From Escherichia coli (GTDB lineage Bacteria; Pseudomonadota; Gammaproteobacteria; Enterobacterales; Enterobacteriaceae): a stretch of 64,000 bases of DNA. The notes below the pieces were generated by a model that saw only the letters and a program-made list of their open reading frames with translations, was not told the DNA's origin and did not search any database. Shown in pieces: positions 33,138-49,399 of the stretch. The position numbers were made by a program, and so were the translations under genes. The stretch is from assembly GCF_001677475.2 (NCBI RefSeq), contig NZ_CP015229.1, one strand, 5' to 3'. The first letter of the stretch is position 1. Each line of letters starts with the position of its first letter.

Positions 33138-33168
33138 GAAAAAAAGCCCCGATGGTAAAAATCGGGGC
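33138..33168 (-). terminator. Intrinsic terminator after deaD
   Basis: Minus strand: gccccgat ... atcggggc stem followed by a T-run (complement of the A-run at 33138-33145). Confidence 0.75.
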
Positions 33169-33211
33169 TGTATATATTATTTTACAGATTGTGTTCGCTG
33201 TTTAGCGATGA

Positions 33212-35101
33212 TTACGCATCACCACCGAAACGACGACGACCGGTAGAGTCATCACGACGCGGAGCGCGGCCTTCACGACGTTCGCCGCTAAAACGACGAC
33301 CATCACCACGACCACCTTCACGGCGTTCACCGCTGAAGTTACGACCACCTTCACGACGTTCGCCACTGAAACCACGACCACCGCCACGACGCTCACCGCC
33401 AGTATGCGGCTGTGCATCGCCCAGTAACTGCATGTTCATCGGCTTGTTGAGAATGCGAGTGCGCGTAAAGTGTTGCAGCACTTCACCCGGCATACCTTTC
33501 GGCAGTTCGATGGTGGAGTGAGAAGCAAACAGCTTGATGTTACCGATGTAACGGCTGCTGATGTCGCCTTCGTTAGCAATCGCGCCAACGATATGACGAA
33601 CTTCAACACCATCATCGCGGCCCACTTCAATGCGGTACAGCTGCATATCGCCAACATCACGACGTTCACGACGCGGACGATCTTCACGGTCACCACGCGG
33701 GCCACGGTCGTTACGATCGCGCGGACCACGGTCATCACGGTCACGGAATTCACGTTTCGGACGCATCGGCGCATCTGGCGGAACAATCAGAGTACGTTCA
33801 CCCTGTGCCATTTTCAGCAGTGCGGCGGCCAGAGTTTCGAGATCCAGCTCTTCACCTTCTGCCGTCGGCTGAATTTTGCTCAGCAGTGCACGGTATTGAT
33901 CCAGATCGCTGCTTTCCAGCTGCTGCTGTACTTTAGCGGCGAATTTTTCCAGACGACGTTTGCCCAGCAGTTCTGCGTTCGGCAGTTCAACTTCCGGAAT
34001 GGTCAGCTTCATGGTGCGTTCAATGTTACGCAGCAGACGACGCTCACGGTTCTCAACGAACAGCAGCGCACGGCCAGCACGGCCCGCACGACCAGTACGA
34101 CCGATACGGTGAACGTAAGACTCAGAATCCATCGGGATATCGTAGTTAACTACCAGGCTGATACGCTCAACGTCCAGGCCACGGGCCGCAACGTCGGTCG
34201 CAATCAGGATGTCCAGACGACCATCTTTCAGTCGTTCCAGTGTCTGCTCACGCAGCGCCTGGTTCATGTCACCGTTCAGCGCGGCGCTGTTGTAGCCGTT
34301 ACGCTCAAGGGCTTCTGCCACTTCCAGAGTCGCGTTTTTGGTACGAACGAAGATAATCGCCGCATCAAAATCTTCCGCTTCCAGGAAACGTACCAGTGCT
34401 TCGTTTTTACGCATACCCCAGACAGTCCAGTAGCTCTGGCTGATGTCAGGACGGGTAGTCACGCTGGACTGAATGCGCACTTCCTGCGGCTCTTTCATAA
34501 AGCGGCGGGTAATGCGACGAATCGCTTCCGGCATGGTTGCAGAGAACAGAGCGGTCTGATGACCTTCCGGGATCTGCGCCATAATAGTTTCAACGTCTTC
34601 GATGAAGCCCATGCGCAGCATTTCGTCAGCTTCATCCAGAACCAGACCGCTCAGTTTAGAAAGGTCCAGAGTGCCACGTTTCAGGTGATCCAGCAGACGG
34701 CCCGGCGTACCGACAACGATCTGCGGCCCCTGACGCAGGGCGCGTAATTGCACGTCATAACGCTGGCCGCCGTACAGGGCAACCACGTTTACGCCGCGCA
34801 TGTGTTTAGAGAAATCCGTCATTGCCTCAGCAACCTGTACCGCCAGTTCGCGGGTCGGTGCCAACACCAGAATCTGTGGTGCTTTCAGCTCAGGATCAAG
34901 ATTCTGCAGCAGAGGTAAAGAGAATGCTGCAGTTTTTCCGCTCCCCGTCTGGGCCATACCCAGGACGTCGCGGCCATTCAGCAGATGTGGAATACACTCT
35001 GCCTGAATTGGAGATGGTTTTTCGTAACCCAGATCGTTAAGGGCTTCAAGGATAGGAGCCTTCAGGCCCAGATCTGCAAAAGTGGTTTCGAATTCAGCCA
35101 T
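33212..35101 (-). CDS. deaD: DEAD-box ATP-dependent RNA helicase DeaD/CsdA, 629 aa
   Basis: Start at internal ATG ([33 protein letters not shown]); DEAD box; Arg/Gly-rich repetitive C-terminus. Confidence 0.93.
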
Positions 35102-35280
35102 GTAGTACGTGTGCCTCAAAATTAATGGCGGCCAGTCTACATAACTCATCATGAAATTGATCAGCAATTTTCATTGAAAAGTGTGAACCGGCTCAAAGTA
35201 GGTGTATTAACGAACAACAACGCCCTCACCCGTTAAGGTGATGGCAATCAAAAAAGATTACGGGCTGATGTGTACGTCAG

Positions 35281-38409: not shown

Positions 38410-38611
38410 TGTAATATCCTTTCTCTTTCTTAGACAGTACCTTACGGCACTGGTGTTAATACCCGATCTTCTGCGCATCCTCGCGACTAATGACAACCCT
38501 AACCCAGCTCTATGTGGGTAAAGCCTCTCATTAGCCGCGCGAACCTCTGCAACGGAAGATCATTCATAGCAACAATACATTAGTTTCCAGTGAATTGCTG
38601 CCGTCAGCTTG

Positions 38612-38635
38612 AAAAAAGGGGCCACTCAGGCCCCC
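38612..38635 (-). terminator. rpsO intrinsic terminator
   Basis: Minus strand: ggggcc-tgagt-ggcccc hairpin followed by tttttt, 20 nt after the rpsO stop. Confidence 0.8.
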
Positions 38636-38655
38636 TTTTCTGAAACTCGCAAGAA

Positions 38656-39021
<366 letters not shown>

Positions 39022-40494: not shown

Positions 40495-40572
40495 TGGCCT
40501 GATAAGACGCGCCAGCGTCGCATCAGGCAATCCATGCCGGATGCGGCGTAAACGCCTTATCCCGCATGGAAC
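40495..40572. repeat. REP/BIME element between infB and rbfA
   Basis: gcctgataagacgcgccagcgtcgcatcaggc and tgccggatgcggcgtaaacgccttatcccgcatgg. Confidence 0.85.
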
Positions 40573-40582
40573 CCTAAAAACC

Positions 40583-43255
40583 TTAAGCGATGGTACGTTG
40601 GATTTCGATGATTTCGAATACTTCGATCACATCGCCAGTGCGGACGTCGTTGTAGTTCTTAACGCCGATACCACATTCCATACCGTTACGGACTTCGTTA
40701 ACGTCATCTTTGAAGCGGCGCAGGGACTCCAGCTCGCCTTCGTAGATAACCACGTTGTCGCGCAGAACGCGGATCGGGTTGTGACGTTTAACCACACCTT
40801 CGGTAACCATACAACCTGCGATGGCACCAAATTTCGGTGATTTGAATACGTCACGAACTTCCGCCAGACCGATAATCTGTTGTTTCAGTTCCGGAGACAG
40901 CATACCGCTCATTGCCGCTTTCACTTCGTCGATCAGGTTATAGATGACGGAGTAGTAACGCAGATCCAGGCTTTCCGCTTCAATCACTTTACGTGCAGAG
41001 GCATCAGCACGTACGTTGAAGCCAACCAGGATGGCGTTGGACGCCGCAGCCAGGGTAGCGTCGGTTTCGGTGATACCACCTACGCCAGAACCGATGATCT
41101 TCACTTTAACTTCGTCAGTAGACAGTTTCAGCAAGGAGTCGGAGATAGCTTCCACAGAACCCTGTACGTCTGCCTTCAGGACGATATTCACTTCGTGAAC
41201 TTCGCCTTCGGTCATGTTGGCGAACATGTTCTCGAGTTTAGATTTCTGCTGACGCGCCAGTTTAACTTCGCGGAATTTACCCTGACGATAGAGTGCAACT
41301 TCACGCGCTTTCTTCTCGTCACGTACAACGGTAACTTCATCACCCGCAGCCGGAACGCCGGACAGGCCGAGGATTTCCACCGGAATGGACGGACCCGCTT
41401 CCAGCACTTCCTGACCCAGTTCGTTACGCATCGCACGAACACGACCGTATTCGAAGCCACACAGAACGATATCGCCCTTGTGCAGAGTACCTTCACGTAC
41501 CAGAACGGTAGCAACCGGACCACGACCTTTATCGAGGAAGGATTCGATAACCGCACCGCTCGCCATGCCTTTACGTACCGCTTTCAGTTCCAGAACTTCC
41601 GCCTGCAGCAGGATAGCGTCCAGCAGCTCATCGATACCAGTACCCGCTTTCGCAGACACATGTACGAACTGGCTTTCACCGCCCCACTCTTCCGGCAGGA
41701 TGCCGTACTGGGAGAGTTCGTTCTTAACGCGATCCGGATCGGCTTCTGGTTTATCGATCTTGTTCACTGCAACGACCACCGGAACCTGCGCCGCTTTCGC
41801 GTGCTGGATTGCTTCGATGGTCTGCGGCATTACGCCGTCGTCGGCAGCAACAACCAGGACTACGATGTCCGTTGCCTGCGCACCACGAGCACGCATTGAA
41901 GTAAACGCGGCGTGCCCCGGGGTGTCCAGGAAGGTGATCATGCCGTTTTCAGTTTCAACGTGGTATGCACCAATGTGCTGGGTAATGCCGCCCGCTTCGC
42001 CAGAGGCCACTTTCGTTGAACGAATGTAGTCCAGCAGAGAGGTTTTACCGTGGTCAACGTGACCCATGATGGTCACAACCGGCGCGCGCGGTTCAGCCGC
42101 TGCCCCCGTGTCACGGTCGCTCATTACCGCTTCTTCCAGCTCGTTTTCACGACGCAGGATAACTTTGTGGCCCATCTCTTCAGCAACCAGCTGTGCGGTT
42201 TCCTGATCGATAACCTGGTTGATGGTTGCCATTGCGCCCAGTTTCATCATCGCTTTGATGACCTGAGAGCCTTTAACAGCCATCTTGTTCGCCAGTTCGC
42301 CAACGGTGATGGTTTCGCCGATCACAACGTCACGGTTAACGGCCTGAGCAGGCTTCTGGAAGCCTTGCTGCAGCGAAGAACCTTTACGTTTTCCGCCTTT
42401 ACCGCCACGTACTGCTGCGCGTGCTTCTTCACGATCAGCTTTTGATTCAGCGTGTTTGTTGCCTTTCTTCGGACGCGCAGCTTTCGCGTTACGACCACGG
42501 CCACGGCCGCCTTCGACTTCACGATCGCTTTCGTCTTCTGCCTGGCGAGCATGTTGAGAAGTAGTGACGTGATAATCGCTGGAATCTTCAGTCGGTTCCG
42601 CGTTATCAGTCCATTTGTTTTCTTCCGCCATACGACGTGCTTCTTCAGCAACGCGACGTGCTTCTTCTTCGAGTTTACGACGCGCTTCTTCTTCGGCTTT
42701 ACGCTTGAGCTCTGCAGCTTCCTGCTCACGGCGGGCTTTTTCAGCCTGGGCGTTTTTAGTCATATCGTCTTGTTGATTGCTCACTTTGTCTTTTTCCGCA
42801 GCTTCACGTTTCGCTTGTTCAGCAGCTTCACGCTTAGCTTGTTCTGCGGCCTCACGTTCAGCTTTTTGTTGCGCCTCGCGTTTAGCCGATTCTTCTGCCT
42901 CACGACGGGCTTGCTCTTCCGCTTCACGCTGCGCTTGCTCTTCCGCTGCAAGGCGTTCAGCCTCTTGCGGATCGCGTTTCACAAAGGTGCGTTTCTTGCG
43001 GACTTCGATTTGTACCGATTTGCTTTTTCCACCGGTACCAGGAATGTTAAGGGTGCTGCGTGTTTTACGTTGCAGCGTCAATTTGTCCGGGCCTGAATTT
43101 TTCTGATTCAGGTGGTCAATCAAAGTCTGTTTCTCTTGTGCGGACACAGAGTCGTCAGCAGACTTCCGGATACCTGCATCAGCAAATTGCTGTACCAGGC
43201 GTTCCACGGAGGTCTGTCGCTCTGCGGCCAGCGTTTTAATCGTTACATCTGTCAT
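40583..43255 (-). CDS. infB: Translation initiation factor IF-2, 890 aa
   Basis: 890 aa; Glu/Ala/Arg/Lys-rich N-terminal region; GTPase G-motifs (GHVDHGKT); in-frame internal GTG (codon 158) and ATG (codon 165). Confidence 0.97.
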
Positions 43256-45263: not shown

Positions 45264-45284
45264 TAAAAAAAGGGCCTAAAGCCC
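45264..45284 (-). terminator. Hairpin and T-run directly upstream of rimP
   Basis: Minus strand: gggctttaggccc followed by ttttttt. Confidence 0.55.
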
Positions 45285-45305
45285 AGTTATTCTGTAGTCA
45301 GATAA

Positions 45306-45328
45306 CAAAAAACCCCGATAAATCGGGG
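45306..45328 (-). terminator. Intrinsic terminator downstream of metY
   Basis: Minus strand: ccccgatttatcgggg followed by ttttttg. Confidence 0.65.
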
Positions 45329-45453
45329 CTTTATATAACTGAACCCTATAACCGCAACTGCGGTCTGGAGCACTTTCCAGAAGGATTTTTTCAAATCCCA
45401 CTACGAAGGCCGAAGTCTTCACAGTATATTTGAAAAAGGACTCTAAGGGAAAG

Positions 45454-45530
<77 letters not shown>

Positions 45531-49312: not shown

Positions 49313-49399
49313 TGGTACCGAGGACGGGACTTGAACCCGTAAGCCCTATTGGGCACTACCACCTCAAGGTAGCGTGTCTACCAATTCCACCACCTCGGC
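49313..49399 (-). tRNA. leuU: tRNA-Leu, 87 nt, long variable arm
   Basis: Reverse complement reads GCCGAGGTGGTGGAATTGGTAGACACGCTACCTTGAGGTGGTAGTGCCCAATAGGGCTTACGGGTTCAAGTCCCGTCCTCGGTACCA. Confidence 0.93.

Follow-up and report, generated by a model that had tools for sequence, protein, structure and literature searches.

Introduction

In Escherichia coli, the cold-shock DEAD-box RNA helicase DeaD (CsdA) ends in a stretch rich in arginine and glycine, and in the window, by which we mean the whole 64-kb stretch of DNA analysed here, the corresponding 3' end of the deaD gene has a repetitive appearance. The question raised by this locus is whether the gene end is genuinely built from tandem repeats and, if so, how often the repeats change the length of the protein among strains, how old they are, and whether they are maintained for the peptide or for the nucleic acid.

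In the passages of PMC11850223 that cite Xu et al. (2017), CsdA is made up of the core, DD, RBD and a C-terminal tail. According to the same passages, the C-terminal regions together improve the affinity for a model RNA from 28 µM (dimeric core) to 0.07 µM (full length) and raise activity as well, a tail-less construct being compared there with the dimeric core rather than with full-length CsdA. For the ATP-independent annealing activity of CsdA, a location in the basic CTD has been proposed (PMC3590231). Purified DeaD phase-separates, and condensates marked by DeaD in vivo have been linked to persistence (PMC12758526); in related bacterial RhlE helicases, C-terminal IDRs govern phase separation and specificity (PMC11260450).

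Results

Identity and domain layout of deaD

The gene and the features that flank its 3' end are located in the window as follows:

33212–35101, minus strand: deaD/csdA coding sequence, cold-shock DEAD-box RNA helicase, 629 aa plus stop codon (open reading frame, NCBIfam NF008642 and Pfam)
33647–33766, minus strand: Arg/Asp-rich linker, a second low-complexity segment with short DRGPR repeats, aa 446–485 (Tandem Repeats Finder, TRF, and composition)
33428–33637, minus strand: DbpA-type RNA-binding domain (RBD), aa 489–558, directly upstream of the tail (Pfam PF03880, 73.6 bits)
33145–33169, minus strand: intrinsic-terminator-like hairpin followed by a T-run (9-bp stem with 6 GC pairs, tail TTTTTTCTGT), between the deaD stop codon and mtr

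The preliminary description had called the gene deaD, and this name was borne out by a score of 1397.6 bits against the DeaD equivalog profile NF008642 (cut-off 989; aa 1–629 aligned with profile positions 1–628 of 628) and by the neighbourhood nlpI-yrbN-deaD-mtr, in which nlpI and yrbN lie upstream and mtr downstream, as seen from open reading frames and from the yrbN translation. The same arrangement is annotated in RefSeq E. coli genomes with matching loci, and the Salmonella locus was also compared; the deaD locus is annotated in 5425 of the 5426 complete E. coli genomes. Pfam domains follow each other in the order DEAD (aa 30–196), Helicase_C (232–340), DeaD_dimer (374–443), DbpA (489–558) and DeaD_C (568–629), so that core, dimerisation domain, DbpA-type RBD and C-terminal tail are all present in the order expected for DeaD, and the D-E-A-D motif occupies aa 156–159. 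The RBD is identical in amino-acid sequence (100%) between E. coli and Salmonella. In the Arg/Asp-rich linker, TRF detected a period of 9 at 33757–33780, and a Salmonella DeaD allele (P0230) has a linker that is 3 aa shorter.

The 3' end of deaD contains four imperfect repeat units

An in-frame imperfect tandem array occupies codons 567–616 of deaD (33254–33403, minus strand). In the direction of translation, its units and the segment that follows them are:

33371–33403, minus strand: unit R0, degenerate leading copy, aa 567–577, 33 bp (over the GERRxGGR core, 20 of 24 nt agree with R1 and likewise with R2)
33338–33370, minus strand: unit R1, aa 578–588, 33 bp (reading-frame parse)
33293–33337, minus strand: unit R2, aa 589–603, 45 bp (TRF, repeat search and reading-frame parse)
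33254–33292, minus strand: unit R3, partial last copy, aa 604–616, 39 bp (reading-frame parse and repeat search)
33215–33253, minus strand: extreme C-terminus, aa 617–629, before the stop codon, kept as RRRFG(G)DA across Enterobacteriaceae (alignment)

TRF reported a period of 33 (2.9 copies, 77% matches, score 127) at 33305–33399 and a period of 45 (2.0 copies, 79% matches, score 113) at 33270–33357, the period-33 array being the strongest tandem repeat within the whole window. A repeat search found three 43-nt copies, which start at 33270, 33315 and 33348 (spacings 45 and 33) and are 79–88% identical. The imperfect tandem repeats that the preliminary description had placed at 33230–33420 are therefore there, as this span contains the array, the strongest tandem repeat of the 64 kb; the unit length of 36–45 bp given with them has to be corrected to periods of 33 and 45 bp, and of the "about three degenerate copies" the three good ones stand, but a degenerate leading copy brings the number to four.

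The most similar pair of units is R1 and R3 (88% over 43 nt), which have in common a 17–18 nt exact core, GGCGAACGTCGTGAAGG(C), repeated at a distance of 78 bp. At the protein level the units encode a motif of the type GERR(E/G)GGR. Residue 579, in R1, is serine in the window and glycine in K-12 and most strains, so that the window carries a minority allele, and owing to Ser579 the eight-residue block FSGERREG occurs exactly three times in its DeaD. No more than 71 of the 5426 genomes matched a 91-bp segment of the window at 99% or more. An origin of Ser579 as a gene conversion tract was ruled out, since its codon is AGT in the window whereas R2 and R3 have AGC, which indicates a point mutation.

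The repeat units make up most of a predicted disordered tail

The preliminary description had assigned the repeats to an Arg/Gly-rich tail of DeaD, and this tail corresponds to Pfam family PF12343 (DeaD_C, "DeaD helicase C-terminal disordered region"), which was matched by aa 568–629 over profile positions 1–62 of 62 with 45.7 bits (gathering threshold 23.3). The stretch is an ordinary, already catalogued member of DeaD_C in the DeaD family. With 20 Gly and 19 Arg in 69 residues, interspersed Glu and Asp and a net charge of +7, the tail contains a single RGG tripeptide (in ERRGGGRG), together with GGR and RG dipeptides that are split by acidic residues.

In an AlphaFold2 model of aa 481–629, calculated on a 17-sequence alignment, nearly all of aa 563–629 had a pLDDT below 50 and no secondary structure, and the RBD folded as beta-alpha-beta-beta-alpha-beta with block-mean pLDDT values of 62–78. 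PDB entries for DeaD span residues 6–210 and 218–445 only, and none of them reaches the tail. The tail is thus predicted to be without stable structure, and the repeat units are best explained as making up most of the approximately 65-residue, Arg/Gly/Glu-rich disordered tail of DeaD.

The array is older than the Escherichia/Salmonella split

In Salmonella enterica, DeaD is likewise 629 aa long and its array is laid out in the same four units. Orthologous units of E. coli and Salmonella agree at 27–30 of 33 nt, and paralogous units within a genome at 18–27 of 33 nt, so that the duplications are older than the split between Escherichia and Salmonella and each unit has diverged on its own since then. 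On the same grounds, namely that orthologous units are closer to each other than paralogous ones, concerted evolution or gene conversion among the units was ruled out. Amino-acid identity between E. coli and Salmonella amounts to 91% in the tail and 99% in the core.

Farther away, the tail of Klebsiella pneumoniae contains four GERREGGR copies and a duplicated APRRDD segment, the repeats are present in degenerate form in Enterobacter, Serratia, Yersinia, Pantoea and Mixta, and the tails of Proteus and of the Pasteurellaceae are merely rich in R, G and N. In the long term the tail thus evolves as copies of the motif are gained, lost or degraded, with the RRRFG(G)DA end and the adjacent RBD being conserved.

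Length alleles among E. coli and Salmonella

Targeted BLAST queries against 5426 complete E. coli genomes, of which at most about six have variants other than these, yielded the following alleles:

629 aa, canonical: no change; about 5236 genomes (about 96.5%)
633 aa (WP_001306022.1): 12-bp duplication in R1, EGGR to EGGREGGR; about 162 genomes, including strains 042 and PCN033
603 aa (WP_005001325.1; WP_001355780.1 in TW10722): 78-bp deletion, R1 fused to R3; 21 genomes
618 aa: 33-bp deletion, R1 fused to R2; 1 genome (K56-43-un)
585 aa: 132-bp deletion between two GCGTCGTG microhomologies, whole array gone; 1 genome (FXCREC035)

The carrier of the 33-bp deletion was found by querying the complete genomes with a constructed allele. 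When constructed alleles with a 45-bp deletion (R2/R3 fusion), a 33-bp duplication or a 78-bp duplication were used in the same way, no carrier was detected among the 5426 complete E. coli genomes, and the best matches were alignments in two or three pieces to normal or +12 bp alleles; no whole-unit expansion was seen among these genomes. The wider protein collection contains an E. coli protein from a draft assembly with 30 additional residues, in which R1 and R2 are duplicated on the +12 bp background (P0126), and an E. coli variant lacking 5 aa (P0150), as well as Salmonella variants with additional 26 aa (P0146), 22 aa (P0202/P0220), 21 aa (P0151/P0152), 1 aa and 2 aa.

Comparison of tail lengths across E. 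coli deaD alleles, the check that the preliminary description had pointed to, thus revealed variants of +12, −78, −33 and −132 bp inside the array. Strains differ in the number of whole units: in E. coli one unit is lost with 33 bp, two units with 78 bp and the whole array with 132 bp, and unit-sized gains in Salmonella or E. coli amount to 78, 66, 63 and 90 bp. Every indel in the array is in frame and flanked by direct repeats, and the indel spacings match direct-repeat pairs present in the window (D1 at 33, 45 and 78; D2 at 63; D3 at 132). All in-frame indel alleles keep the extreme C-terminus RRRFG(G)DA. Direct repeats thus mediate occasional in-frame contraction and expansion. The expectation that the repeats are prone to slippage and could vary in copy number between strains was borne out by about 185 complete E. 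coli genomes, out of 5426, with in-frame length variants within the array (about 3.4% non-canonical), by unit-sized expansions and by a recurrent 78-bp deletion, but such variants are rare; the array should be regarded as a slow VNTR, and "slippage-prone" does not mean a hypermutable switch.

Intragenic VNTRs in bacterial housekeeping genes, as used in MLVA typing, resemble the deaD array in being in frame, in gaining and losing sequence by units and in having recurrent identical alleles, whereas the deaD array is much less polymorphic and its units are degenerate. In the literature, no relevant paper was found on deaD as a typing marker (VNTR or MLVA) or on in-frame repeat variants of the gene. 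The bile-resistance deaD mutation of Salmonella is located in the helicase core, outside the tail.

The 78-bp deletion arose at least three times

Over 4.1 kb, five carriers of the 78-bp deletion were 0, 19, 62–69 and 137–143 SNPs apart, and carriers differ even within about 100 bp of the junction. The haplotype of 1403KP, which has the deletion, finds its nearest relatives among undeleted strains (record span of 1379 versus 1301), and the same holds for the deleted haplotype of EC0026B, whose nearest relatives ATCC 8739, strain C and B-lineage strains are undeleted; other carriers of the deletion are absent among the nearest relatives of both haplotypes. As carriers are divergent and their nearest relatives undeleted, the R1/R3 fusion must have arisen at least three times, and this recurrence fits the fact that R1 and R3, with their common exact core, are the best-matching pair of units.

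Alternative explanations for the array and its variants

The tail consists of 57% Arg and Gly, CGT is used for 17 of 19 Arg and GGT for 14 of 20 Gly, and a periodicity might thus arise by chance in a low-complexity region with few preferred codons. However, the best ungapped self-match in the 69 tail codons is 32, at lag 33, and when the same codons were shuffled 1000 times, keeping amino-acid and codon composition, a mean of 13.0 and a maximum of 27 were obtained and none of the shuffles reached 32; in 1000 base shuffles, which did not reach 32 either, the mean was 7.7 and the maximum 14. The periodicity is therefore not a by-product of Arg/Gly codon bias, and at least two head-to-tail copies are more alike than composition alone accounts for. 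As the TRF scores of 127 and 113, the three exact occurrences of FSGERREG and the coincidence of indel end points in other strains with unit boundaries also speak against chance, we regard an origin of this kind as exceedingly improbable. The repeat-finder analysis by which the preliminary description would have its periodicity judged gave a significant result (TRF score 127, with a self-match above those of all 1000 codon shuffles), and it is confirmed that the deaD 3' end is truly built of old, imperfect 33/45-bp tandem repeats. Such repeats could still be kept for a function of the nucleic acid, be it a structure or processing signal in the 3' end of the mRNA, an sRNA derived from that end or a gene read from the other strand, and open reading frames of 110 aa (33189–33521, plus strand) and 71 aa (33202–33417, minus strand, other frame) do overlap the array, and the intrinsic-terminator-like hairpin lies 45 nt downstream. 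Against such a function, the mRNA-sense strand folds no better than expected (z = −0.46; in 64 of 200 shuffles the fold was as good or better), no Rfam family matches over the array at the gathering threshold, synonymous changes in the tail affect 27% of conserved codons, a rate as high as in the rest of deaD (18–28% in other segments), and the overlapping frames give monotonous strings of RRSPLK and VVV, as is to be expected of the shadow of a coding repeat that is periodic and rich in GC. Taken together, the ordinary synonymous rate, the unexceptional folding, the lack of an Rfam match at that threshold and the shadow frames indicate that constraint acts on the peptide, and a nucleotide-level function appears very improbable.

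For repeats that are real and encode a constrained peptide, it may be asked whether the length differences are real as well, or whether the array is truly invariant and the variants are artefacts of sequencing or assembly at a repetitive, GC-rich site. Singleton proteins from draft and metagenome assemblies (P0121–P0125) have large odd internal duplications elsewhere in deaD and are possible misassemblies. The +12 bp allele (about 162 genomes) and the −78 bp allele (21 genomes), however, have identical junctions in complete-level assemblies that come from many countries and laboratories, the latter has been passed on clonally (SCEC020001 is identical to CUVET16-559 over 4.1 kb), and the variants are all in frame with direct repeats at both ends, so that the artefact explanation is in our view very improbable. 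An opposite reading, in which the array serves as a contingency locus and, as a hypermutable and adaptive VNTR, switches or rapidly tunes DeaD within populations, could draw on the existence of length variants, on the recurrence of one of them on different backgrounds and on the fact that unit-sized expansions and contractions are both seen. A contingency locus is recognised by near-perfect short repeats, shifts in frame or promoter spacing and high frequency, a description that the deaD array does not fit: its units of 33–45 bp are 77–88% identical and are multiples of three, which makes switching by frameshift impossible, about 96.5% of the 5426 genomes have one and the same length, and no whole-unit expansion turned up when the complete E. 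coli genomes were queried with constructed alleles. The same four-unit layout in Salmonella and the greater similarity of orthologous than of paralogous units also argue against concerted evolution or rapid turnover, and there is very little chance that the array acts as such a switch.

Discussion

The reading that we prefer, and hold with considerable confidence, is that four in-frame units of 33, 33, 45 and 39 bp encode a disordered, basic tail of DeaD with a probable role in RNA tethering, the array being old and subject to occasional in-frame slippage, with selection acting on the peptide. As shown at the DNA level, the direct repeats now and then mispair in replication or recombination, giving rise to in-frame losses and gains that end in shared cores; among large events the 78-bp deletion between the best-matching pair R1/R3 is the most frequent, and purifying selection on the peptide keeps the canonical length in most strains. 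Published work and the analogy with other helicases suggest that the tail is a flexible, net-positive appendage beside the RBD, which would add non-specific multivalent RNA contacts and so tether the helicase core to large RNAs. It is also the likely seat of ATP-independent strand annealing and a plausible contributor to phase separation of DeaD. That these roles in RNA tethering and in condensates belong to the tail, as opposed to the RBD, we infer by analogy with other helicases.

One might go further and regard the length of the tail as a natural tuning knob, in which the loss of 26 aa or the expansions would shift GERREGGR valency, RNA tethering and the condensate threshold, certain lineages, many of them clinical isolates from humans and companion animals, would come to differ in phenotype in the cold, under stress or in persistence, and the deletion would recur because it is adaptive and not simply through mutation; we consider this unlikely. 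Clinical lineages retain natural alleles in which 26 or even 44 residues of the array are missing, and much of the array is thus dispensable for viability.

Compared with Pfam PF12343 (DeaD_C) and NF008642, the tail belongs to the same family and nothing essential is different, the window merely having the minority Ser579 allele. The RGG/RG box, as Thandapani et al. reportedly described it in 2013, is a cluster of closely spaced RGG (or RG) motifs, such as di- or tri-RGG, and the DeaD tail is not an RGG/RG box of this eukaryotic type. Having many Glu and Asp residues and one true RGG, it is a polyampholyte, and this weakens the analogy with eukaryotic RGG boxes. Like the RGG/RG-box domains of LAF-1 and the tails of Ded1/DDX3 and Dhh1, which drive RNA-dependent phase separation, the DeaD tail is an Arg/Gly-rich IDR on a phase-separating DEAD-box ATPase (PMC12758526). 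In contrast to these domains, its charges alternate (ERRE) around the single RGG, and its part in condensation is suggested by analogy. The tails of Mss116p and CYT-19 are, in the passages of PMC3590231 that cite Mallam et al., unstructured and basic, located after a folded C-terminal domain, and proposed to serve as a non-specific tether to structured RNA and as an aid in annealing. The DeaD tail is likewise a basic unstructured extension, for which a tethering role is suggested by this analogy, but its sequence is not homologous to theirs: it comes after a DbpA-type RRM, belongs to a dimeric helicase, is composed of repeated GERREGGR and is rich in acidic residues.

The tail itself is already known, since Pfam has a curated family for it and earlier papers describe a basic extension at the C-terminus of CsdA; what is new here is only the list of natural alleles that differ in tail length and the finding that the 78-bp deletion recurs. 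The catalogue comprises E. coli alleles with +4, −11, −26 and −44 aa, together with expansions of +21 to +30 aa from both Salmonella and E. coli. Differences of 12–132 bp in deaD length between strains are real and should not be annotated as pseudogenisation, and beyond annotation the array is of little consequence. The natural alleles are ready reagents with which motif valency of a bacterial DEAD-box IDR can be related to RNA binding, to annealing and to the DeaD condensates linked to persistence.

Sequence context of the repeat array

Within unit R1 of the repeat array (window 33338-33370), codon 579 of deaD specifies Ser (AGT) in the window; in K-12 and the majority of strains it specifies Gly (GGT). 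At most 71 of the 5426 complete E. coli genomes matched the window's 91-bp haplotype carrying Ser579 at 99% or more and, when a 501-bp segment was compared, the best match among complete genomes was 99.6%; the window therefore does not derive from K-12.

Two additional open frames cross the repeat array, one of 110 codons on the plus strand (window 33189-33521) and one of 71 codons in another frame of the minus strand (window 33202-33417). Their translations consist of RRSPLK-type and poly-Val strings, and both look less like genes than like frame shadows of the periodic GC-rich coding repeat. At the other end of deaD, a small ORF overlaps the start codon by 8 nt in a different frame:

35094-35174, minus strand, yrbN, 26 codons

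This ORF is the counterpart of YrbN, a small protein annotated in RefSeq as WP_010723222.1; at the Salmonella locus, YrbN is covered by Pfam PF28071.

Structured RNAs and a further repeat cluster

Outside deaD, the following Rfam matches were obtained in the window at the gathering threshold:

548-924, RNase P RNA
38468-38639, SraG sRNA
38869-38983, S15 leader
40496-40566, naRNA4
45265-45365, rimP leader
45457-45530, first of two tRNAs
49316-49399, second of two tRNAs
56052-56173, greA leader

This set of matches fits the part of the E. coli chromosome in which deaD lies. Imperfect tandem repeats with periods of 21 and 24 (TRF scores 68-94) are clustered at 42620-42947, and their consensus units suggest a coding repeat on the minus strand that would be rich in Ala, Glu, Arg and Lys. 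With the rimP leader in the neighbourhood, the cluster possibly belongs to the N-terminal region of infB.

Repeats and length variation in other parts of DeaD

In the region of deaD encoding motif VI, a period-9 micro-repeat, GCACGGCCA, is present in 3.6 copies (window 34068-34099) and encodes 12 residues that immediately follow the conserved HRIGRTGR helicase motif VI. Among the DeaD relatives from the protein search, the singleton proteins P0121-P0125 (656-829 aa), which originate from draft or metagenome assemblies, contain large internal tandem duplications. These measure 27-200 aa, lie in the core, in the dimerisation domain or in the RBD, and may be real or else misassemblies.

A second low-complexity segment (aa 446-485, window 33647-33766) separates the dimerisation domain from the RBD; it is rich in Arg and Asp (15 R and 9 D in its 40 aa) and contains DRGPR repeats, with a TRF period of 9 at 33757-33780. 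The Salmonella DeaD allele P0230 is 3 aa shorter within this segment, so slippage-type variation is seen there too.
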